A program made the position numbers and the translations under genes. Of a DNA stretch of 32,000 nt, positions 3,224-13,596 are shown one piece after another. Origin of the DNA: Paracoccus suum (GTDB lineage: Bacteria; Pseudomonadota; Alphaproteobacteria; Rhodobacterales; Rhodobacteraceae); NCBI RefSeq assembly GCF_003324675.1, contig NZ_CP030918.1, positions 1,500,001 through 1,532,000 of the forward strand, in the 5' to 3' direction. The notes beneath the pieces are model-generated. The model did not search any database and was not told where the DNA came from. It saw only the letters and a program-made list of their open reading frames with translations. Every line of letters starts with the position of its first letter. Position 1 is the first letter of the stretch.

Positions 3224-4324
3224 ATGCAGGAGGCTATGATGACGACAGGACCCGCGCAAATCGCCTATGGCGGATTTCTCGGTTTATTGGGCAGCGCAAG
3301 CGACATCGATGCGACGATCAACGTCGATCAGAGCGCCGGCGCGCAGAACATCTCGATTGAATTTCACCGTTCGCTGCTTGGCGCGATCTTGCCCGATCCG
3401 CTGAACACCGAATGGGACCTGTACACCCTGACCGAGGTTTCGGACCCGGGGAACGTCGGCTCTGCCGTCCTCGGTAACGGCACGGGCGATACGGACGCCC
3501 TGCAGCCTGACGGGACGAGCCTGACCAACCGTAACGACTGGCAGCACGACACCTTCAAGTTCACCTTCGACACCTCGGCCCAGGCTTGGAAGGACTTGGC
3601 CATCGGCGAGAGCCTGACGGTCGAATACCGGGTCGACGCGGTAGAATATGGTGCCATCGGCGGCGGCACGGATGAGTTGACCATCAAACTGACCTTCGTG
3701 AAGACCTGCTTCACTGCAGACAGTTTGATCCTCATGGCCGACGGGACCGAGCGCCGCGCCGGTGACATCAACGTCGGGGACATGATCGCGACCGTCGACA
3801 ATGGCGCGCGCCCTGTGCGCTGGGTCGGCAAGACGGTCGTCGCAGGTGCCGAGCTGGAGCACTTCCCCAGCTGGAAGCCGGTCATTATCCGCGCAGGTGC
3901 GCTGGGCGGCGGCCTGCCGGCGAGCGACCTGCAAGTCTCGCAACTGCACCGGGTCGTGGTGCGCGGCGCGGTGGCGCGGCAGCATTTCGACAGCAATGAG
4001 GTGCTGGTCGCCGCGCGCTTCCTGACGGCGCTTGACGGGGTCGAGATCGTCGAGGACGCCAGCCACGTCGACTACGTCCACTTCATGTTCGACCGCCACG
4101 AGATCATCACCGCCAACGGTGTGCAGAGCGAAAGCTTCTGTGTCTCGCCGCTGTCGCGCAACCAGGTGGGCGCGGCCCAGCTGGTCGAGCTGGAAGCCTT
4201 TTTCCCCGACCTTGCGGCGATCGTTCGCACCGGCCGGCAGGATCTGGTTCGTCCCGTCGCGCGCGGCCCGCTGGCCGAAAAGATCATCGCGGGCCACCGG
4301 ACCCAGGGAATCGCGCTGCAATAA
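3224..4324 (+). CDS. Hint (Hedgehog/intein-like, Hint_2-type) domain protein with a variable N-terminal beta-rich passenger region
   Basis: The C-terminal ~200 aa are CFTADSLILMADGTERRAGDINVGDMIATVDNGARPVRWVG...PVIIRAGALGGGLPASDLQVSQLHRVVV...VDYVHFMFDRHEIITANGVQSESF, the pattern of Rhodobacterales Hint_2 proteins, starting at the nucleophile-position Cys. AGGAGG at 3228-3233 favours the internal ATG at 3236 or 3239 as the true start. No signal peptide and no GGxGxD RTX repeats. Confidence 0.8.
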   Translation: MQEAMMTTGPAQIAYGGFLGLLGSASDIDATINVDQSAGAQNISIEFHRSLLGAILPDPLNTEWDLYTLTEVSDPGNVGSAVLGNGTGDTDALQPDGTSLTNRNDWQHDTFKFTFDTSAQAWKDLAIGESLTVEYRVDAVEYGAIGGGTDELTIKLTFVKTCFTADSLILMADGTERRAGDINVGDMIATVDNGARPVRWVGKTVVAGAELEHFPSWKPVIIRAGALGGGLPASDLQVSQLHRVVVRGAVARQHFDSNEVLVAARFLTALDGVEIVEDASHVDYVHFMFDRHEIITANGVQSESFCVSPLSRNQVGAAQLVELEAFFPDLAAIVRTGRQDLVRPVARGPLAEKIIAGHRTQGIALQ

Positions 4325-4508: not shown

Positions 4509-5060
4509 ATGAACGTACAACCCGAAGGGACTTCCACTGGCCGGGACGCCATCATTGGCCGTTTGCCGGGTGATCCGCCGTTCGGCATGCCCGAGGCGCA
4601 GGCCGAGACCTGCGCCACCGTACGTGACATGCTATATCTCGCCGCCCATGACAGTGCCTTCTCGCAGCTCACCGGGCTGCGGCTGGTCGAGATGCTGACC
4701 CATCACGCCGCGAACGAGCAGGTGATCCTGCTACGCAGGGGCGAATACCCAGTCGCTTTCGGCATCTGGGCGCGGATGTCCGAGGAAGCGCTGCGCAAGC
4801 TTATGAACAAGGGCTACGAGGCACTGGAGGCGGCGGACCTCGCAAGCGGCGACAAGATCGTCATGGTCGGCATTTGCGCGCCGTGGCGGCGCGAGGATTT
4901 CGACTTCATCTTCACGCGAAGCGGCAACACCCTCGACGACGGCTCGGGCGAGGGCGGCTGGTATCTGGTGCTGCCGGCCGTCAAGAACATGCGCAAGCGC
5001 CTGACCCGCTTCAGGCGCACCAGCCCGACCAGCGGCGTGTTGGAGGAGGCCCGACTGTAA
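4509..5060 (+). CDS. HlyC/CyaC/ApxC-family (RTX-toxin-activating lysine acyltransferase) homologue
   Basis: 183 aa. QVILLRRGEYPVAFGIWARMSEEALRKL...LASGDKIVMVGICAPW aligns by eye with E. coli HlyC QYVLLTRDNYPVAYCSWANLSLENEIKYL...WTSGDRKWFIDWIAPF. GAGGAG lies 7 nt upstream of the ATG. Confidence 0.7.
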   Translation: MNVQPEGTSTGRDAIIGRLPGDPPFGMPEAQAETCATVRDMLYLAAHDSAFSQLTGLRLVEMLTHHAANEQVILLRRGEYPVAFGIWARMSEEALRKLMNKGYEALEAADLASGDKIVMVGICAPWRREDFDFIFTRSGNTLDDGSGEGGWYLVLPAVKNMRKRLTRFRRTSPTSGVLEEARL

Positions 5061-5168: not shown

Positions 5169-6446
5169 TCAGCCCGCGTGCAACAGCCGGTGCAGGACCA
5201 GGGACATCACCTTGGCGCTCTCCTCCATGTCCTGCACGCCGATCCATTCATCCGGTTGGTGCGCGAGGTCCAGAACACCCGGACCATATGCAATGCAGTT
5301 CTTCAGCTTGCCGATGCGGTCGATATGCTTTTGATCGTAGGTGCCGGGGCTGACGACATACGCGGCCTCACGACCCAGCACCGTTTCGATGGCGGCGGCG
5401 GTGGCGGTGACAACTGGAGCGTCGCGATCGGTCATTGAGGGGATCACCTCGAACAGATCGCGCACCTCGTAGCGAAAGGTCGGGCGCTCGGCGCGCACAC
5501 GCTCCAGCAGAGCTGTAACCTCGCGCTTTACCTCGGTGAGGTCCTCCTCGATCAGATAGCGGCGGTCGATCACGATGCGGCAGCGGTCGGGCACACAGGC
5601 GGACGGCAGGCCGGTGTAGTCCTCGGCCTGCTCCACCGCGCCGCCGTGGATGCTGTTGATGTTCAGCGTGCTGGACCGGGCGCCATCCGGGATCACCGGC
5701 ATCGCCGTGCGGCGGCTGGCGAGCAGCGGTATCAGGTTCGCCTCGATCTCGGCCAGCACGGCACCCATGTGGCGGACGGCGCAGTCGCCCAGGAAGGGCA
5801 TCGAGCCATGGGCGATCCGCCCCTCTGTCTCGATCTCCGCCCACCAGACACCGCGATGGCCGAGGCAGATGCGGTCCTTGTGCAGCGGCTCGGGGATCAG
5901 GACGTGCTGGACACGGTCGAAATGGCCCTGCTGGGCGAGATAGGCGACCCCGCCAAAGCCGCCCGATTCCTCGTCGGCGGTGGCGCTGATCTCGATGCTG
6001 CCGGCGAAGTCGGGACAGGCGGCAACGAACGCCTCGGCGGCGATGATGCTGGCGGCGAGGCCGCCCTTCATGTCGCAGGCGCCGCGGCCATAGATGCGCC
6101 CGCCATCCTCGTCCGTCAGCTCGCCCCCGAACGGATCGCGGGTCCAGCCGTGGCCGACCTCGACCACGTCGTGATGGCTGTTGAAATGAACGCAGTCACC
6201 GGACCCTGTGCCCTCGCGCCGCGCCACGATATTCCAGCGCGGATAGGCCTCGCTGTCACCGGGCGCGCCGACCGCCCGGATCAACTGGCAATCCCACCCC
6301 TGCGGCGCCATGCGTGCCGCGATAGCGTCGCAGATATCGCGGTAATGCAGCCCCGGGGGGTTCAGCGTCGGGATGCGGATCAGCTGTTGCGTCAGGGCGA
6401 TCAGCTGGTCGCGGCGGGATTCGATCTGGGAAAAAAGGCGGTCCAT
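5169..6446 (-). CDS. M20-family metallopeptidase (ArgE/DapE-like deacylase)
   Basis: 425 aa with the motifs HFNSHHDVV, GRGACDMKGG and ISATADEESGG, typical of acetylornithine deacetylase / succinyl-DAP desuccinylase relatives. The substrate cannot be assigned. Confidence 0.8.
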   Translation of the reverse strand: MDRLFSQIESRRDQLIALTQQLIRIPTLNPPGLHYRDICDAIAARMAPQGWDCQLIRAVGAPGDSEAYPRWNIVARREGTGSGDCVHFNSHHDVVEVGHGWTRDPFGGELTDEDGGRIYGRGACDMKGGLAASIIAAEAFVAACPDFAGSIEISATADEESGGFGGVAYLAQQGHFDRVQHVLIPEPLHKDRICLGHRGVWWAEIETEGRIAHGSMPFLGDCAVRHMGAVLAEIEANLIPLLASRRTAMPVIPDGARSSTLNINSIHGGAVEQAEDYTGLPSACVPDRCRIVIDRRYLIEEDLTEVKREVTALLERVRAERPTFRYEVRDLFEVIPSMTDRDAPVVTATAAAIETVLGREAAYVVSPGTYDQKHIDRIGKLKNCIAYGPGVLDLAHQPDEWIGVQDMEESAKVMSLVLHRLLHAG

Positions 6447-6551
6447 CGCATGACGCTAGGTGCGGCGCGCAGACTGTGCAAGGAACCCCCTGCGCGCACA
6501 TCGTGTTCGGTGCTGAAGCGCTGACGCCGCGCCATTTTTCAAGGGGACCCC

Positions 6552-7625
6552 ATGGCATCGTTGGACCAGCAGATCGTCGAAAGCCAGCAGCAGGTGGCCG
6601 AGACGCAGCGCAAGCTGAGCGAGCTTGGCAACCGCTTTGACCAGGCCGCCGCCAGCCAGACCGAGGCCGGCACCGGCATCGACGTCGCCACCGCGACGCT
6701 GGAGGATGTGAACCGCCACACGCAGGTGATGAACGCCAATATCGCCGAGCTGATCATGGGGCTGGACGATATCACCTCGGGCTTTTCCAAGGATTTCGAG
6801 GAGATGCGCTCGAAAACCGGGTGGGAGAGCTTTGTTGGCATGTTCGCCCGCGGCAAGTCCGAGGCGATGCGCCAGGAACGCCTGCGCACCGCCAGCATCG
6901 ACGACAAGCTGCAGGATCTGATCGGCAAGTCCGACGTGATCACCCGGCTGCTGCAAGGCCAGCTGGACCAGCTTAACGAGCAAAAGGCCAAGGTTGAGGC
7001 GAACCTGTCCCAGACCCTGACCGACCGCGAGACCACGGTCGACACGCTGGAGACGCTGCGCGAGCAGATCAAGGCGATGGACCCGCAACTGATCGAGCTC
7101 GAGGGCAAAGTTGCCAGCACCACAGACCCCAGCGACCGTACCCGGCTGGAGAGCGAGTTGGCGCAGGCCAACGCCCGCCACAACGCGCTTGTGCAGGACG
7201 AGCAGGTCGCCCTCGCCAAGTCGCAGACGCTCGAACGCTATATCGAGGCTGGCAAGACCTGGGTCGACAGCCTTCAGAACCAGGCGGCCACGCAGATGGT
7301 GCTGATCAACAAGCTGCAGACCGACACCCGCCAGCGGGTGGTGCTGTACGACGCTCTGACCAAAAGCCTCAAGACCGCGCAGCAGCAGGACATTGCCCAC
7401 CGCATCAACGAGATCGGGGTCAAGACCGACCAGGAGGCGCAGGCCCAGATGGCGGCTATCGGCACGGCCACCAACAGCCGGATGGCCGACATGCTGGAGG
7501 CCCATGGCGAGCATATGGTGTTCGCCCGCAAGGTGCTGGAGGAAAAGCAGAAAGCCGACGAGCGCTTTGCGCGCCGCTTTGCCGAGATCGTCGAAAAGCA
7601 CGACAAGAACCTTTATGGCGGCTGA
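6552..7625 (+). CDS. Long coiled-coil protein, possibly TelA/YaaN-like (tentative); first gene of the seven-gene operon
   Basis: 357 aa, with no TM segment or signal peptide. It is Q/E/L/A/K/T-rich with long helical heptad-like stretches (LQDLIGKSDVITRLLQGQLDQLNEQKAKVEANLSQ; LESELAQANARHNALVQDEQVALAKSQTLERYIE). Length and segment order resemble TelA-family proteins as I remember them. AGGGGA lies 4 nt upstream of the ATG, and GC3 bias is strong, unlike the R/G/P-rich antisense ORF. Confidence 0.75.
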   Translation: MASLDQQIVESQQQVAETQRKLSELGNRFDQAAASQTEAGTGIDVATATLEDVNRHTQVMNANIAELIMGLDDITSGFSKDFEEMRSKTGWESFVGMFARGKSEAMRQERLRTASIDDKLQDLIGKSDVITRLLQGQLDQLNEQKAKVEANLSQTLTDRETTVDTLETLREQIKAMDPQLIELEGKVASTTDPSDRTRLESELAQANARHNALVQDEQVALAKSQTLERYIEAGKTWVDSLQNQAATQMVLINKLQTDTRQRVVLYDALTKSLKTAQQQDIAHRINEIGVKTDQEAQAQMAAIGTATNSRMADMLEAHGEHMVFARKVLEEKQKADERFARRFAEIVEKHDKNLYGG

Positions 7626-7655
7626 CGGCGGCCGGGCGGGCAGGGGACGTCGCTG

Positions 7656-8786
7656 ATGGCCAACACCGGAACCCTCGATGCCGACCATCGCCGGATCGAG
7701 GATGACCTCGAGACGCGGTCCTACGTCGCGCGTACGGCAGGGGTTATGGCGGCGCTGCCCGCCGTCACCCGCGAGATGGTGCGCGACCGGCTGCTGGGCG
7801 ATGCCGATGTCCGGGTGATCGGCGGCTATCTGGCGGCGTTGCAGGCGAGCCTTGCTGCATTGGGAATGAAATACCTCGTCGCTGGGCGAATCGAAGGCCC
7901 GCTGCGCAGCTGGCTGACCATCGATACCCATGAAAGCGGGTTTCCGGTCTGGCAGGAGATTGCCCAGACCGCCGCGGACGCGGCGCAGGCAGCGACCGAA
8001 CTGGGCCGCACGCCGCCGGCCGAAACGATCAAGGATGACATGATCCGACAGATCGTCGGCGATCGGGTCCTGCCGACCCGGCTGCAATATGCCCTGTCAC
8101 AGCGCTATTACTACGAGGCGTTGGCGGCGGGCGGGCTGTTCTGGCCGCAAATGCACCCGCAGGCCGAGGGGCAGGGCCAAGCCGGCAGCCGCCGCCGCTG
8201 GCTGATCCACTGGGCGATCTACGACAGCCAGTTGAACGTGCCGGTGATCTACCTGCTCGACTGCGACGACAGCGGCCGCAAGCCGCTGCCCGAGGATTCG
8301 CGCCGCTGGCCCGAGGCGAGCGCACATCTGTTGGCGCAGTCGGTGACCGCGCTGCAACTGGTCACCATAGCGCAAGGGTTCGACCGGGATTTCGACACCC
8401 TCCACCCCCGTCGCCTGCGGCGCCTGACACTCGGCCCGATATATTCGCGCCTCTTTACCGTGCAGGAAGGCCCGATCCGCCAAGTGCTGGACGATGCACA
8501 CGCGCCCCAGGGTGAGGATTGGGCGTTGGCCATGACCATCGAGGAGTTGCGCGCCGGACGCGCGGTGATGGAGGCCTCGGGCCTTTTCTCGGTGGTCGAG
8601 CGCCAGATCTTTGACCTCGACCCGCTGAACCAGCACGGCGCGGGGCAGGGCGCCACGTCGGCCGCGCGTGTGCTGGTGCTGCCGGCGCGGCCGTTTCAGG
8701 CGTTGTCCGAACTGGACCCGGAGGGGTTTCGCAACGTGCGCAAGTACGTCGTGGCCCCGGGCGATACGGTGCGCGGCTATGCGTGA
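7656..8786 (+). CDS. Hypothetical soluble protein (376 aa), no recognisable domain
   Basis: ORF with normal amino-acid composition and GC3 bias. GGGGA lies about 9 nt upstream. It starts 30 nt after the preceding gene, and I see no TM segment or motif I can name. Confidence 0.7.
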   Translation: MANTGTLDADHRRIEDDLETRSYVARTAGVMAALPAVTREMVRDRLLGDADVRVIGGYLAALQASLAALGMKYLVAGRIEGPLRSWLTIDTHESGFPVWQEIAQTAADAAQAATELGRTPPAETIKDDMIRQIVGDRVLPTRLQYALSQRYYYEALAAGGLFWPQMHPQAEGQGQAGSRRRWLIHWAIYDSQLNVPVIYLLDCDDSGRKPLPEDSRRWPEASAHLLAQSVTALQLVTIAQGFDRDFDTLHPRRLRRLTLGPIYSRLFTVQEGPIRQVLDDAHAPQGEDWALAMTIEELRAGRAVMEASGLFSVVERQIFDLDPLNQHGAGQGATSAARVLVLPARPFQALSELDPEGFRNVRKYVVAPGDTVRGYA

Positions 8787-8822
8787 CGGCGCAGGATCAG
8801 GGCCGCTGGGCCGGGAAGGCGA

Positions 8823-10757
8823 ATGATGGATACCCGTGACGCGATGGAACTGCCCGAGGCGAAGATTCGCGCCCAGTATCCGCAGGCGCTTTCGCTGCTG
8901 CGCGGGTTTGACTACGCGCCGCGCATTGCAACGGCGCAGGCGCCGGCGCACGGCCCAGAGCGCGCGCCCGGCTTCCCGCCCCCGGCCCGCTTTCGCTCGA
9001 CCGTGCCGGGGCTGGCGGGGCGTTCCACCGCCCGGCCGGGCAGCGTCAATCTGGCTGAGCGGGTCGAGGCGATCTCCGGCGACGATCTGCCCTCCGCGGC
9101 GGCGGCCACCGTGTTGCGCGATCTGCGCCGGGCGCTCGCCATCGCGTTGGCCCTGGGCGATGAAGTCTCGCAGCGCAGCGGCGCGGCCGAGTTGAAGCGG
9201 CTGAACCTCGACGGCCGCCTCACGCTCGATCGCAAGCCCGAGTTCACCGAGATGCTGGCCGTCGAAAGCCTGGCGGTGCTGGCGACCTTTGCCAATGCGG
9301 CGGCCTTCCTGCTGGCCGATCAGGCCGGGCCCGAAGCGCCCGACATCGGGCCAGTGTCCGAGGTGCTGACAGACGCCCCGCACACCGCCCTGCACGGCGC
9401 GCTGTGGGAACTGGACCAGAAGCTTGCCACCCATGCCAGCGACGACAAGACGCTGGTCGCCGTCACCCTGGCCTATGCCGAGGCGCTCGCCGCTGCCGTC
9501 CGCGCCCGCGCCGAAAGCGCGCCGCGCACCGAGGTATTCACCGGCGCCAGCTGGCGCGTCGCCGCCGACGATTTGCCGATCACGGGCTTTGCACCCGCCG
9601 CGCGCAGCCGCGGCAAGCCGCTGGCGATGGCCTTCAAGAAGCCCGAGGAGGTGGTCGGCAACGCCGCCGCCAAGCACCAAGCGATGCGCCTGGCGCGGAT
9701 GATCGTCGCCTATGATTTCGACCGACGCCTCAACCCCTTTGTCGAGCTTGGGGGCTTCATCTTCACCTTTCTCGGCGACGGCAAGCCGGGCACCGGGAAG
9801 ACCACGCTGATCCAGATGATGGCCGGGCTGATCAACGATTACTGCACCGTGGCCGGCTATCCCTTCGTCTATCGCAACCTCGGCATCGACAATGTCGACA
9901 GCTACCAGGGCAAATCCGGCCAGAACGCGCGGGCTTTCATCGACGCTGTAATCGACCCGGCGGTGATCGGCTTTGGCACCGTGGACGACATCGACCAGGT
10001 CGCTGGCCGGCGTGGCGATCGCCAATCCTCCAGCGGCCAGCAAGAGATCACGGCGGTGCTGATGGACGCCTTCGCCGGCGCGTCCACCGTGGTGCGCGGC
10101 AATGCCACCTTCGGCATGTTCTCGAACTACGCCGAGGCCATCGACGACGCGCTGCGCCAGCGAGCGGGGGCGCGCTTCCTGATCGACGGGCCGAAGTCGC
10201 GCGAGGATTACATCGACATCTTTGCCCTTCTGCTGGGCAAGCGCCACGACATCCCGGTCGGCGAGCATGACCTGATGAAGGCGCAGGCGATCAGCACGGC
10301 GGTCTCCGAAGGCTACGAGCGTCACGCCCGCCCGCAGGAGGCCGGCCTTGCCAAGGTCTGGTCGCAGGTCGAAGCGCAGCTTGGCCCGATGGACACGCTG
10401 GCCGACTTCGGCACCTACCTGCACGCCATCGCCGAGGCCGAGCCGCGCTTTACCGGCCGCGCGGTCAAGAATATCACCGACGCGATTAAGCTGCGGGCCA
10501 TGGATTTCGACATGCCGGACGAGTGGTTTGCCTCGCCCGAGCCATTCCTGCACCAGCCTTACGACGTGAAGCTGCAGATGTTGGAAGCATTGCGCCAGCC
10601 GATCACCCCGGAAATGGTCCTGCAGGAGATCAACCGCTACGCCGATAGCGAATGGCGGTATAGCGGGACCAGCGACGAGACCGCGATCGAGGATGCGGTG
10701 CGCGGCATGGAGCGCGCGGCCGAGGCGCGGCGGCGGTTCGAGGGGGCGGCGCGATGA
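8823..10757 (+). CDS. Classical-clade AAA+ ATPase with a ~280-aa N-terminal region of unknown type
   Basis: 644 aa. Walker A is LGDGKPGTGKTTLIQ (nt ~9774-9810), Walker B is GFGTVDDIDQV, the sensor-1 region is ATFGMFSNY, and the arginine-finger region is DDALRQRAGARFLIDGP. This resembles FtsH/Vps4/CbbX-type AAA modules. A single AAA module is followed by a ~170-aa C-terminal helical region. Confidence 0.85.
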   Translation: MMDTRDAMELPEAKIRAQYPQALSLLRGFDYAPRIATAQAPAHGPERAPGFPPPARFRSTVPGLAGRSTARPGSVNLAERVEAISGDDLPSAAAATVLRDLRRALAIALALGDEVSQRSGAAELKRLNLDGRLTLDRKPEFTEMLAVESLAVLATFANAAAFLLADQAGPEAPDIGPVSEVLTDAPHTALHGALWELDQKLATHASDDKTLVAVTLAYAEALAAAVRARAESAPRTEVFTGASWRVAADDLPITGFAPAARSRGKPLAMAFKKPEEVVGNAAAKHQAMRLARMIVAYDFDRRLNPFVELGGFIFTFLGDGKPGTGKTTLIQMMAGLINDYCTVAGYPFVYRNLGIDNVDSYQGKSGQNARAFIDAVIDPAVIGFGTVDDIDQVAGRRGDRQSSSGQQEITAVLMDAFAGASTVVRGNATFGMFSNYAEAIDDALRQRAGARFLIDGPKSREDYIDIFALLLGKRHDIPVGEHDLMKAQAISTAVSEGYERHARPQEAGLAKVWSQVEAQLGPMDTLADFGTYLHAIAEAEPRFTGRAVKNITDAIKLRAMDFDMPDEWFASPEPFLHQPYDVKLQMLEALRQPITPEMVLQEINRYADSEWRYSGTSDETAIEDAVRGMERAAEARRRFEGAAR

Positions 10758-11242
10758 TGCATTGGAGCGCCGATGTCTGGTCGGCCGTCGCCAGTTGGAT
10801 CATGGCCGTTGCATCGGTCGGCGCCTGCGTCGTTGGCCTGTTCGGCCTCTGGACCTGGAAAAAGCAGGACATGTGGAAGGCCGACAAGGACCTTGCACGG
10901 CGCATGCTCTTGACCCTGTCGCATTACGAGAATGCCGTGCGCGCCGCCGTCAACATGCCGGCGACCGCGGACCCCTCGACCGACCGCCGCGCCGTTGCGC
11001 AGGCGAGGGCCGAGGTCCTGCCCCTGTCGCAGGAGGCCGAGGCGGTCTGGGGCAAGGACTTTCCTGCCGACCGACTGGCACAGGCGCTGCGCCTTGAGGG
11101 CGAGATTTTCGCCACAAGCGCTGATTCCCCCGACCACGCGTTAGGCGCGAGTCCCACACATTCCGGCATCCTCGACCTTCTGCACCGCGAGTTGCAGCAC
11201 ATAGAGGCGGTGCTGCGCGGCAAGTTGGGGACGCGCAGATGA
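10754..11242 (+). CDS. N-terminally membrane-anchored hypothetical protein (162 aa)
   Basis: The start overlaps the AAA+ stop (ATGA at 10754-10757). There is one TM helix (VWSAVASWIMAVASVGACVVGLFGLW) followed by a helical soluble part. Confidence 0.65.
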   Translation: MMHWSADVWSAVASWIMAVASVGACVVGLFGLWTWKKQDMWKADKDLARRMLLTLSHYENAVRAAVNMPATADPSTDRRAVAQARAEVLPLSQEAEAVWGKDFPADRLAQALRLEGEIFATSADSPDHALGASPTHSGILDLLHRELQHIEAVLRGKLGTRR

Positions 11243-12615
11243 CCGGTGTTGCCACGCTCATCGAAAAAGGCCTGATGTTCGGCGGTCTGATCCGCGTCGA
11301 TTCCCCGGCATGGGTCGCGCGCTATAACCGCGCCTTGCAAAAGCTGATCGGCAAGCAGACCGCGCTGAGCGAGTTTCACATCGACCTCAGCGGCACCTCG
11401 CCCGAGATCGGGGACGAATTGGGCGATCTGGACTACCTCGACCCGCAGGGCGGCACGCGCCAGTTCATCCTGCTGACGACAGAACAAAAGACCGCGCCGC
11501 TGCTGAACGTCGATCTGTCGGTCGAGCGCGAGATCCTGCGCCGCTTTATCGTCGCCAATGAAAGCCAGCTTTTCACCCTGACCGCCCGCGATGCGGTCGT
11601 GGGCGAGATGGACGAGGGCGTATGGCAGATCGCGTCGCCCGCCGATCTGCTGGGCATCCGGCATTTGCGGGTGACTGCCGACACTACCGGGGACCAGGTG
11701 GCGCAAAGCGCCCGTCTGACGGCGATGATCGACCGCTTTCGCACCGAGCGCGATGCCTGGTGGGACGACGTGCTGATCGCCCAGATGATCGAGCAGGCGC
11801 AGAAATCGGGCGATGTCACCCGCAACCCGGTCCGCCTCGGTCAGACCGAGTTCGAGGTCGGTGATTTCTGGACGGCCGAATTCGGGGGCGTTTATGTCAT
11901 CCGCTCGGCGCGGGAGCCGGCGGTGATCTTTTCGGACAAGACAAAGCTTCGCCCGCTGCAGGGCGCGCAGTCGTTGAGCGTCGATCAGCCCCATGCGATC
12001 GCCGCCTGGCTGGCGCGCAACGGGCTGGCGGATTCGCTGGCCTCGACCCGCTCGGCCGGAACAGCGGCACTGCTTCGCCAGAAGATCGACTTTATCCTCG
12101 TCGATGCAGCGGTGCGGCTGGAGATCGACACCGGCGCTGGTACGCGTGCCGACCTGCGCCGCGCCGTCGGGCGCATGGGCGACGCGCTGCCGCCCGAGGT
12201 GCGCAGCCTGTCGGCGCTGGCCAGCTATATCGAGCATGGCGGCGACTGGCCCGTGATCGACAGCGCCGATCCAGCCTATTTCTATGCCGTCCGGGCGACG
12301 CCCGGCCCGGCCCGCGACGTCATCAACATGCTGTTGGCGGAACTCGCCCCGCATGACGTTCGGGCGCTGTTCATTCTCAACAAGCCCTTGTTCTACCGCC
12401 TCTATCGCGGCTGGGACGCCGCCAAGCAGACCTACGTCGCGACCCAGCTTGAGCAGGAATACATGCTCGACAAGCAGGGCACCCGCGCCGCGCTGTTCGG
12501 GCCGGAGCCGGGGATGGCCGATCCGGTCGGCGCGCCGGCGGCCCCAGCCATTGTCGGCCCGTGGGGCGCCCGGCAGGCGGCTGCCACCCCATCGCCCTGG
12601 GGGCCGGCGCGATGA
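11239..12615 (+). CDS. Hypothetical soluble protein (458 aa), no recognisable domain; Pro/Ala-rich C-terminal tail
   Basis: The start overlaps the previous stop (ATGA at 11239-11242). Composition and GC3 are normal, and the tail reads ...PEPGMADPVGAPAAPAIVGPWGARQAAATPSPWGPAR. Confidence 0.7.
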   Translation: MTGVATLIEKGLMFGGLIRVDSPAWVARYNRALQKLIGKQTALSEFHIDLSGTSPEIGDELGDLDYLDPQGGTRQFILLTTEQKTAPLLNVDLSVEREILRRFIVANESQLFTLTARDAVVGEMDEGVWQIASPADLLGIRHLRVTADTTGDQVAQSARLTAMIDRFRTERDAWWDDVLIAQMIEQAQKSGDVTRNPVRLGQTEFEVGDFWTAEFGGVYVIRSAREPAVIFSDKTKLRPLQGAQSLSVDQPHAIAAWLARNGLADSLASTRSAGTAALLRQKIDFILVDAAVRLEIDTGAGTRADLRRAVGRMGDALPPEVRSLSALASYIEHGGDWPVIDSADPAYFYAVRATPGPARDVINMLLAELAPHDVRALFILNKPLFYRLYRGWDAAKQTYVATQLEQEYMLDKQGTRAALFGPEPGMADPVGAPAAPAIVGPWGARQAAATPSPWGPAR

Positions 12616-12890
12616 AGTTCGTGCGCCTCGCTGCACTGGTCATCGCGCTGGAGGCGGTCCTCTACGTCGTCCTGTCGATCTATCTGCGCTCGCTGGAGCG
12701 AGAGCGGCTGGAGGAGGCATGGGATGAAGTCAACCCCGGCCGCGGCGGCGACAGCCCAGCCAGACAGGAATTTGTCGAGCGGCGGATGACGGCGTTTCAC
12801 AAGACCCTGCGCGCGCGGCTGGTAGTGCTGGCGGTGCTGCTGCCCATGGTGGCGATCTCGGTAATCGTCTACTTCGTGAACTATCGGTGA
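12612..12890 (+). CDS. Small two-TM membrane protein (92 aa)
   Basis: The ATG at 12612 overlaps the previous stop (ATGA). The product is MKFVRLAALVIALEAVLYVVLSIYL...RLVVLAVLLPMVAISVIVYFV. The track ORF start at 12561 would overlap the upstream gene by 55 nt and looks like an over-extension. Confidence 0.6.
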   Translation: MKFVRLAALVIALEAVLYVVLSIYLRSLERERLEEAWDEVNPGRGGDSPARQEFVERRMTAFHKTLRARLVVLAVLLPMVAISVIVYFVNYR

Positions 12891-12906
12891 TCAGAGGGGG
12901 CGCGCG

Positions 12907-13596
12907 ATGCGATATGCAGGTTGGGTGCTGAAGGGGCTGTTTGCCCTGTTGGTGTTCCTGTTTCTCGACTACTCGCTACCCAGTCGCGAGACTGTGCGGA
13001 TCACCAATACCTACAACAAGCTGACCGACCTCGGTGCCAACAGCATCTTTTATGCGGGCGCCGATACCGGCACGGTCGAGAACCAGCAGGGCCTGCGCGA
13101 CATCCGGTATATCGACACGATTAAGGCCAATGGCCGGCCGCGCGTCTATCGAAACGAGGATACCGGCTGGATCTGGCCGCCATATTTCAAATACGACAGC
13201 TCGAACCTGCAAGCGCGCGCGACGGACCTGAAATCGACTGCCGAAGCGCCCAAATGGGTCAGCGTGACTGCATATGGTTGGCGCGTCGGCTGGCTGACCA
13301 TCTTTCCAAACGCCATTTCGCTCAAGCCCGTGGCCGGGCCGGACGTGCGCCCGCTGAACTGGGCGGCGCTGGTGATCCTCGGGGTTCTGGGGCTGTTGCT
13401 GGTGCTGTTGTGGCGCATTTGGGCGCAGTTCCGCGAGCGGACGATCGACCCGGCGGTGCGCCGCGCAGACGAGACATGGGACCGGCTCGACGCCCGGGCC
13501 GACGCCGCACGGGATCGCCTCTCGTCCGAGGCGGGCGAGGCGCGGGGCCGTATCCGCGGCTGGCTGGACACCTGGCGCGGCAAGCCGCGCCGCTGA
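12907..13596 (+). CDS. DUF1523-family membrane protein
   Basis: 229 aa with an N-terminal TM helix (VLKGLFALLVFLFLDY) and the conserved core YRNEDTGWIWPPYFKYDSSNLQA, which I recognise from DUF1523 proteins. A second TM helix (WAALVILGVLGLLLVLLW) and a charged tail follow. GAGGGGG lies 7 nt upstream. Confidence 0.7.
   Translation: MRYAGWVLKGLFALLVFLFLDYSLPSRETVRITNTYNKLTDLGANSIFYAGADTGTVENQQGLRDIRYIDTIKANGRPRVYRNEDTGWIWPPYFKYDSSNLQARATDLKSTAEAPKWVSVTAYGWRVGWLTIFPNAISLKPVAGPDVRPLNWAALVILGVLGLLLVLLWRIWAQFRERTIDPAVRRADETWDRLDARADAARDRLSSEAGEARGRIRGWLDTWRGKPRR

Follow-up and report, generated by a model that had tools for sequence, protein, structure and literature searches.

A conserved AAA+ ATPase gene cluster of Rhodobacterales with a separable membrane module, possibly a protein-remodelling system tethered to the inner membrane

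Paracoccus suum carries a run of seven same-strand open reading frames (ORFs), called P1 to P7 here, within a 32,000-nucleotide (nt) stretch of contig NZ_CP030918.1 (positions 1,500,001 to 1,532,000; "the window" means the whole of this stretch). Their coordinates are given in Table 1. Successive junctions measure +30, +36, -4, -4, -4, and +16 nt, and the three -4 junctions (P3/P4, P4/P5, and P5/P6) are ATGA overlaps that can be read directly in the sequence. An earlier sequence-only reading of the window, made by a model without database searches, had described the seven ORFs, these junctions, the divergent M20 peptidase gene on one side, and the gap of 111 nt before deoC on the other, and all are present as described. 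Terminator-like sites within the cluster do not rise above chance, and the GC content of P1 to P7 (0.64-0.71) is the same as that of the remaining window. P5 is 100% identical to the product of P. suum locus tag DRW48_07385. An alternative GTG start for P6, at 12561, was set aside because the alignment of homologues favours the ATG at 12612.

Table 1. The cluster and its flanks in the window, with sizes in amino acids (aa) or nt
Feature	Position	Strand	Size	Description
P1	6552-7625	+	357 aa	ORF; coiled-coil/all-helical protein, core
P2	7656-8786	+	376 aa	ORF; soluble, without Pfam family, core
P3	8823-10757	+	644 aa	ORF; classical-clade AAA+ ATPase, core
P4	10754-11242	+	162 aa	ORF; N-terminally anchored, occupant of the P3/P5 slot
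P5	11239-12615	+	458 aa	ORF; DUF6638, soluble, core
P6	12612-12890	+	92 aa	ORF; two transmembrane segments
P7	12907-13596	+	229 aa	ORF; DUF1523, two transmembrane segments
Intergenic, presumed promoter region	6447-6551	+	105 nt	From the divergent M20 peptidase gene to P1
Peptidase_M20 gene	5169-6446	-		Divergent, upstream of P1
DeoC gene	start ATG 13708			After a 111-nt gap downstream of P7; followed by an aldehyde dehydrogenase gene

What kinds of proteins does the cluster encode? By hydropathy, P4 has one transmembrane (TM) segment and P6 and P7 have two each, with no convincing segment in P1, P2, or P5, in agreement with the three membrane-anchored members proposed from the letters alone. 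Scans of the products against Pfam, NCBIfam, PADLOC, and PHROGs brought up no enzyme, transporter, DNA-binding, or defence signature, much as the sequence-only reading had it. The two domains that it had named, the AAA+ module of P3 (PF00004) and DUF1523 in P7 (PF07509), were both recovered by Pfam. The proteins of 376, 162, and 92 aa had been said to match nothing; together with P1, they indeed have no family in Pfam, NCBIfam, or PADLOC (coiled-coil noise for P1 aside), and the 162-aa P4 does match a PHROG family, described below. The 458-aa P5, likewise called unmatched, is a clear member of Pfam DUF6638.

P3 matches the Pfam AAA family with 42.5 bits, against a cut-off of 21.2, over residues 320-453. 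Residues ~1-300 form a family-specific N-terminal region and ~310-470 the AAA module, and the C-terminal part that comes after them is helical. The N-terminal ~300 residues contain no recognisable domain, and Pfam detected no MIT-type domain. When P1, P2, P3, P5, and P7 were searched by profile and sequence against PDB sequences, the AAA module alone was matched; its closest relative is the i-AAA domain of Yme1 (5ubv), with weaker matches to fidgetin-like 1, katanin, and Rpt3. Motifs were compared among 25 Rhodobacterales sequences and those of Algimonas, Sinorhizobium, Vibrio, and a high-GC clade. Invariant across these clades are the Walker A motif GDGxPGTGKT (GDGKPGTGKT in the window, which fits the P-loop GxxGxGK[ST]), the pore loop YQG(K/R)S (SYQGKS aligns with YVG of Yme1), the sensor-1 residue N435, and an arginine motif, D.ALRQR(A)G.R, similar to the second region of homology. 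The first Asp of the Walker B motif GFGT(I/V)DD(I/V)DQ is present and equally invariant, and the catalytic position is Asp, not Glu, in every member from Paracoccus to Vibrio (residues 388-389, window 9984-9989). PADLOC returned weak generic AAA matches only, among them TRIP13 (E 6.1e-5) and IetA (E 5e-3), the hits spanning 6e-5 to 1e-2. A search of 2.9 million viral contigs turned up no relative of the ATPase. One family member, a 628-aa protein (hmmsearch E 2e-238), is encoded on a metagenome contig of 23% GC (L155, 84-1970), which has genes for a GatB-like protein and a UvrD-like helicase as well and ends just upstream of the AAA gene; no DUF6638 gene follows it.

P1 is the most conserved member of the cluster, with 70-83% identity across Rhodobacterales (tblastn) and a mean column identity of 84%. 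Its proline content is 0.6%, and its 3.5-residue hydrophobic periodicity is 2.35 times background, compared with 1.01+/-0.35 in shuffled sequences, only 1 of 300 of which reached that value. The periodicity is concentrated in the first 200 residues, and conservation is strongest in the C-terminal half. The description of P1 as a coiled-coil protein thus holds, as far as its composition and periodicity can tell. Library scans (Pfam, NCBIfam, and PADLOC) gave generic coiled-coil matches only. A full-library phmmer search showed P1 to belong to a small family (280 representative clusters), in which identity among full-length homologues drops as low as 22-30%.

The two other soluble partners are large proteins with confidently predicted folds. 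P2, which has no family in any of the four libraries, gave an AlphaFold2 model with a predicted local distance difference test score (pLDDT) of 91.5 and a predicted template-modelling score (pTM) of 0.89, in which a long N-terminal helical hairpin is followed by a large antiparallel beta-sheet domain. Foldseek found no significant match for it, the best E being 0.096 in PDB and 0.016 in BFVD, with TM-scores of at most 0.17. P5 matches DUF6638 (PF20343) over profile positions 1-436 of 439 (E 5.8e-164, 546.5 bits); its model has a pLDDT of 87.3 and a pTM of 0.82, with residues 430-458 disordered, and had no match by Foldseek in PDB (best E 1.9). The check by structure prediction and Foldseek that had been suggested for the cluster therefore yielded, for both proteins, a confident model and no significant match in PDB. 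The name DUF935 (the phage Mu portal family), which UniRef attaches to the P2 orthologue of Paracoccus spongiarum, is apparently spurious, as 0 of 120 orthologues match that family. The disordered C-terminal tail of P5 is rich in Gly and Pro and bears PWG motifs. Such a tail is present in 119 of 123 P5 proteins adjoining DUF1523 and absent where the membrane partner differs, a correlation that is confounded by phylogeny and may be read only as a hint that P5 contacts P6/P7.

The membrane proteins lie immediately downstream. P6 consists of two TM segments around a charged, Arg-rich loop, and its alignment shows a conserved YxRSxRRExLE. P7 is a full-length DUF1523 protein (229 bits, profile positions 1-176 of 176) with the core YRNEDTGWIWPPYFKYDS. 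Hydropathy gives it an N-terminal TM segment, an extracytoplasmic domain of ~125 aa, a second TM segment, and a conserved cytoplasmic tail, FRERxIDP...W..W.GKPR; against PDB sequences, P7 has no relative. P5 is translationally coupled to P6, with a junction of -4 in 44 of 56 complete loci (61 of 74 overall), and P6 and P7 are 7-132 nt apart (median 11). DUF1523 is also found alone, in Pasteurella, Pseudomonas plasmids, and Bacillus jumbo phages, and the alignment shows that the stand-alone proteins of Pseudomonas and Pasteurella are missing the cytoplasmic tail. In some cases (L082, 5974-7893, and L084, the Pseudomonas juntendi megaplasmid NZ_CP118678.1), the stand-alone gene adjoins one for a TerF-like protein (TerD + vWA-TerF) and stands at the border of a complete ter island (TerB/C/D and the biosynthetic genes).

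How widely is this arrangement kept? Scanning the DUF6638 alignment over one genome per species gave at least 503 genomes, and the 80 loci retrieved all belong to Rhodobacterales or to metagenome bins that look like Rhodobacterales. Where upstream DNA was sufficient, the order P1-P2-P3-P5-P6-P7 is kept in 56 of 58 Rhodobacterales loci (tblastn); the two exceptions, both Frigidibacter-like, have only P5-P6-P7 within 10 kb. Identity to the window proteins in the same searches is 60-79% for P3, 53-70% for P5, 48-71% for P2, 38-70% for P7, and 30-62% for P6. The 70-83% identity of P1 across the order indicates high purifying selection. When metagenomes were scanned with the AAA alignment, 80 loci were obtained, most with the full set of the Rhodobacterales type.

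Outside the order, contexts were traced from phmmer matches to P1 and from tblastn searches of plasmid and chromid records. Algimonas porphyrae has the full set (P1, P2, AAA, a 99-aa TM protein, DUF6638, P6, and DUF1523) in an unrelated neighbourhood. In Sinorhizobium meliloti, Shinella, and Rhizobium leguminosarum, P1-P2-AAA-DUF6638 is followed by a DUF2333 membrane protein; megaplasmids (~0.9 Mb) of Vibrio parahaemolyticus and V. vulnificus have the four soluble genes only, with no adjacent membrane gene; and in a metagenomic clade of 70-73% GC the four soluble genes precede other TM proteins. The arrangement is far beyond chance, since dozens of genomes share it and it recurs outside Rhodobacterales. 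Its invariant core, to judge from these comparisons, is the soluble set P1, P2, P3, and P5, in which P2 keeps its place between P1 and P3 in every clade, and the membrane partner downstream is exchangeable. The check by gene neighbourhood that the sequence-only reading called for thus came out in its favour, with the order shared within Rhodobacterales and the core in further orders, and its view of the cluster as native rather than a recent island agrees with the native composition, the conserved synteny, and the at least 503 species-level genomes. Its notion of a conserved core is borne out within Rhodobacterales and has to be qualified in two respects: P1-P5 are missing at the locus in the Paracoccus denitrificans group, and the core occurs on Vibrio megaplasmids.

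The P. denitrificans group deserves a closer description. The same chromosomal site in P. ferrooxidans (L081, CP038202.1, 7336-10608), P. versutus, P. denitrificans, and P. pantotrophus has the M20 gene, P6 (93 aa), DUF1523, and deoC in a row without P1-P5, and their P7 shares 71% identity with that of the window. The group is, on this evidence, a natural deletion lineage that still keeps P6-P7 under constraint. A different arrangement is represented by one Rhodobacterales-like contig (L088, 4440-7081) that carries a P1 homologue at 29% identity, two small TM ORFs, and DUF1523; genes for P2, AAA, and DUF6638 are absent from this locus with its diverged P1 and P6-P7. The drop of P1 to 29% identity after the loss of P2, P3, and P5 would fit a constraint imposed on it by the other core proteins, in a single case. 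P6-P7 is, then, a separable and exchangeable membrane module placed right after P5.

P4 had been counted as one of seven members of the unit, and it does not belong to the conserved set. Homologues (tblastn, ~30% identity) occur in only 4 of 80 loci. Over residues 3-97, P4 has a match (E 2.6e-9) to PHROG 6169, a phage protein family without known function, and tblastn against phage and plasmid collections gave no match. It occupies one of three variable slots, P1/P2, P2/P3, and P3/P5, which hold mostly ORFs for small membrane proteins. Between P3 and P5 the distance varies from -4 to 2942 nt, with 150 nt or more in 40 of 56 loci; P1/P2 reaches up to 781 nt, and P2/P3 up to 1596 nt. In the P1/P2 and P3/P5 slots, several unrelated families of small + strand ORFs are found, most with hydrophobic segments; where the P3/P5 slot is empty, P3 and P5 are directly coupled. 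P4 is a lineage-specific slot occupant, and its presence in 4 of 80 loci, along with the variability of the slots, means that the conserved unit is one of six genes, kept in order. Larger insertions were also seen. In S. meliloti Ak57 (L089, 9636-11381), an ISRm16-family transposase gene and a gene with a DUF559 endonuclease domain lie between the AAA and DUF6638 genes, and a DUF559-like ORF is also present in the P3/P5 slot of a metagenome locus (L170).

What might such a set of proteins do? We see about an even chance that it is a conserved AAA+ protein-remodelling system of two modules, tethered to the inner membrane and not previously described. Gene content, order, coupling, conservation, the ATPase motifs, the topology by hydropathy, and the absence of known relatives are observed, and the architecture is well supported; ring formation, the threading of a substrate, the contacts between the proteins, and the physiological role are what we infer. 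P3 would form a ring that uses ATP to pull a protein client via its pore loops, resulting in unfolding, extraction, or disassembly; that some protein is pulled in this way is suggested by the conservation of the pore loop. P1, P2, and P5 would be obligate partners of P3, serving as scaffold, adaptor, or client, with P5 docking the complex onto the P6/P7 membrane module. Candidate clients would include P1, P2, the tail of the membrane partner, and the small membrane proteins encoded in the slots. Docking of P5 on P6/P7 would put the activity at the cytoplasmic face of the inner membrane, where it may be linked to a periplasmic signal or activity. The likeliest role would be maintenance of the envelope or of membrane proteins, or a stress-responsive remodelling. 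In outline, this agrees with the uncharacterised, AAA+-containing, membrane-associated system envisaged from the letters alone, for which the conserved order, the TM segments of P6 and P7, and the lack of characterised relatives all speak.

The remodelling system so described faces objections of three kinds. (i) The presence of P6-P7 without P1-P5 in the P. denitrificans group, and of P1-P5 without a membrane gene in Vibrio, suggests that the link between the two modules may be facultative. (ii) The Asp in place of Glu in the Walker B motif of P3 may mean slow hydrolysis, and P3 could be a switch rather than a processive unfoldase. (iii) The envelope-maintenance role is drawn from topology and genomic context only.

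A bolder version, which we hold tentatively and think rather doubtful, is that the core with its exchangeable bitopic membrane partner represents a new class of AAA+ machine whose job falls outside those of the characterised AAA+ systems. One example would be an ATP-driven coupling of a cytoplasmic coiled-coil assembly to a periplasm-facing protein, serving envelope remodelling or signalling across the membrane, with two folds that are not seen in solved structures.

Do the two modules belong together at all? They could be independent neighbours, a cytoplasmic machine of P1-P2-P3-P5 next to a P6-P7 envelope module with a role of its own, as the four Paracoccus species with P6-P7 alone at the site, the Vibrio megaplasmids with soluble genes only, and the stand-alone DUF1523 genes in Pasteurella, Pseudomonas plasmids, and Bacillus phages would allow. 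We consider this unlikely, however, given that the P5/P6 ATGA overlap recurs in 44 of 56 loci, that the whole set moved jointly to a new neighbourhood in Algimonas, and that the position after P5 is taken by another membrane protein, such as DUF2333, in other lineages. The P7 of Rhodobacterales, moreover, has a cytoplasmic tail, unlike stand-alone DUF1523.

A second alternative follows the analogy drawn in the sequence-only reading to ESCRT-III/Vps4 or PspA-type systems, in which P1 would polymerise on the membrane and P3 would disassemble or recycle the polymer. P1 is long, helical, poor in Pro, heptad-like in its periodicity, and unusually conserved, P3 belongs to the classical AAA clade, as do Vps4, katanin, and fidgetin, and the system is linked to the membrane. 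Searches for homology, however, all failed to support the analogy for P1. Among 40 diverse P1-family members, no match to Pfam TelA, PspA_IM30, or Snf7 was found at E<=0.01; P1 and its family profile found nothing among PDB sequences, a set that includes PspA, Vipp1, and ESCRT-III; and hhalign of the P1 family against Escherichia coli PspA gave a probability of 0.8%. P3 lacks a detectable MIT-type domain (Pfam), and nothing in ESCRT or Psp systems corresponds to the large, obligate P2 and P5. On balance, we find the polymer-recycling scheme quite improbable.

Could the cluster be an anti-phage or conflict system, in which an AAA+ sensor or remodeller controls membrane effectors? Its distribution outside Rhodobacterales is patchy and includes the 0.9-Mb Vibrio megaplasmids, the soluble block has been lost in one Paracoccus clade, and the variable slots, with their diverse small membrane proteins, hold a PHROG match in P4 and an insertion sequence and DUF559 endonuclease in S. 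meliloti; P3 also has its weak PADLOC matches to TRIP13 and IetA. Those matches, however, reflect generic AAA similarity, and apart from the coiled-coil match of P1 no other member has any. Pfam found no nuclease, protease, NADase, or toxin domain, the composition is native, conservation is very high with a stable chromosomal context within Rhodobacterales, and the 2.9 million viral contigs contain no relative of P3. A function in defence therefore seems very unlikely to us.

That the cluster is a TelA/Ter-type module against toxic anions or chemical stress, as the resemblance of P1 to TelA noted in the sequence-only reading and the DUF1523/TerF pair in the ter island of Pseudomonas megaplasmids might suggest, is hardly credible, since TelA (PF05816) is matched neither by P1, even at E<=0.1 (NCBIfam gave nothing either), nor by 39 diverse members of its family, no ter, kla, or xpaC-type gene occurs among P1-P7, the eight flanking ORFs scanned, or the annotated or Pfam-tagged related loci inspected, and the Pseudomonas context involves DUF1523 only and not the core.

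The region upstream of P1 offers some hints about regulation. The window has GGAACCCCCTGCGCGCACATCGTGTT (GGAAC-N18-GTT) at 6482-6507, which resembles a promoter of the extracytoplasmic function (ECF) or EcfG type, though the spacing is not an exact fit. The motif GGAAC-N17/18-GTT occurs in 4 of 61 loci, namely the window and its three closest Paracoccus relatives (L004, L007, and L008), and in no other genus; being restricted to these close relatives, it was rejected as a general feature of the cluster. No match to the sigma-70 consensus was found in the region upstream of P1. An RpoH-type promoter upstream of P1 in other genera was likewise rejected, the -35/-10 matches being too loose when held against the published description for R. 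sphaeroides RpoH. In 28 of 60 loci (among L010-L080; for example, L012, L033, and L057), the 160 nt ahead of P1 contain a 17-bp palindrome, TGTAA-N7-T[TA]ACA. It takes one of two fixed positions, about -29, just before the ribosome-binding site, or -54 to -61. It is absent from the window, and it occurs nowhere else on either strand of the 1.43 Mb of DNA fetched. The palindrome looks like a dedicated operator for some regulator.

The only trace in the literature is a ChvI-bound DNA fragment that has been reported inside SMc02733 (PMC3687685). By reckoning from gene numbers, we presume that this gene belongs to the S. meliloti cluster. Full-text literature searches brought up no functional study of DUF6638, DUF1523, DUF2333, or the P. 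suum and presumed S. meliloti genes. Farther upstream in the window, beyond the M20 gene, lie a gene for a protein with a Hint_2 domain (E 2.3e-43; 3224-4324) and, after it, one for a small HlyC-family (RTX toxin acyltransferase) protein (4509-5060).

If the remodelling reading is true, at least 500 Rhodobacterales species, Sinorhizobium and other rhizobia, some Caulobacterales-type bacteria, and Vibrio megaplasmids carry this AAA+ system, among them groups relevant to marine carbon and sulfur cycling and to plant symbiosis. The system would bring with it four conserved partners of unknown function, including P2 and P5, whose folds are confidently predicted and have no relative in PDB. It also makes a well-defined target for experiment: the boundaries of the modules are clear, S. 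meliloti is tractable, and the P. denitrificans group supplies natural knock-out lineages for comparison.

How does the cluster compare with systems already known? With TelA/Ter modules it shares an all-helical protein of ~350 aa and, in Pseudomonas megaplasmids, the placement of DUF1523 beside TerF, and it differs in having no TelA profile match in 40 P1-family members and no ter genes in the loci inspected. The TRIP13/Pch2-HORMA modules of CBASS, the cyclic oligonucleotide-based antiphage signalling systems, supply the best PADLOC match of P3 (E 6.1e-5) and likewise set a classical AAA+ remodeller beside possible small or medium-sized clients. Here, however, there is no cyclase, effector, or HORMA protein, and the P2 model retrieved no structure significantly from PDB with Foldseek, HORMA structures included. 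Unlike those modules, the cluster is not sporadic but chromosomal, with high conservation, and it was not found in viral contigs. The likeness to Vps4-ESCRT-III and PspA/Vipp1 is that the gene for a helical or coiled-coil protein accompanies that for a classical AAA+ ATPase and that the setting is membrane-associated; the differences are that the 357-aa P1 has no detectable sequence homology to PspA, IM30, or Snf7 and that the set includes two more large, obligate proteins as well as a bitopic partner facing the periplasm.

A further comparison is with the classical AAA+ remodellers, such as FtsH/Yme1, Cdc48/p97, Rpt/PAN, katanin/fidgetin/Vps4, and Msp1. Unlike them, P3 has no protease domain, TM anchor, or recognisable N-domain (MIT, Cdc48-N, or OB fold), its N-terminal region of 300 residues and C-terminal region of ~170 residues are specific to the family, its Walker B motif reads DD rather than DE, and nothing in those systems corresponds to its partners P1, P2, and DUF6638. 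What P3 does share with them is the Pfam AAA domain, Walker A, the aromatic-x-Gly pore loop, the sensor-1 Asn, and the arginine motif, and it would be expected to work as they do, as a client-pulling ring with dedicated partners.

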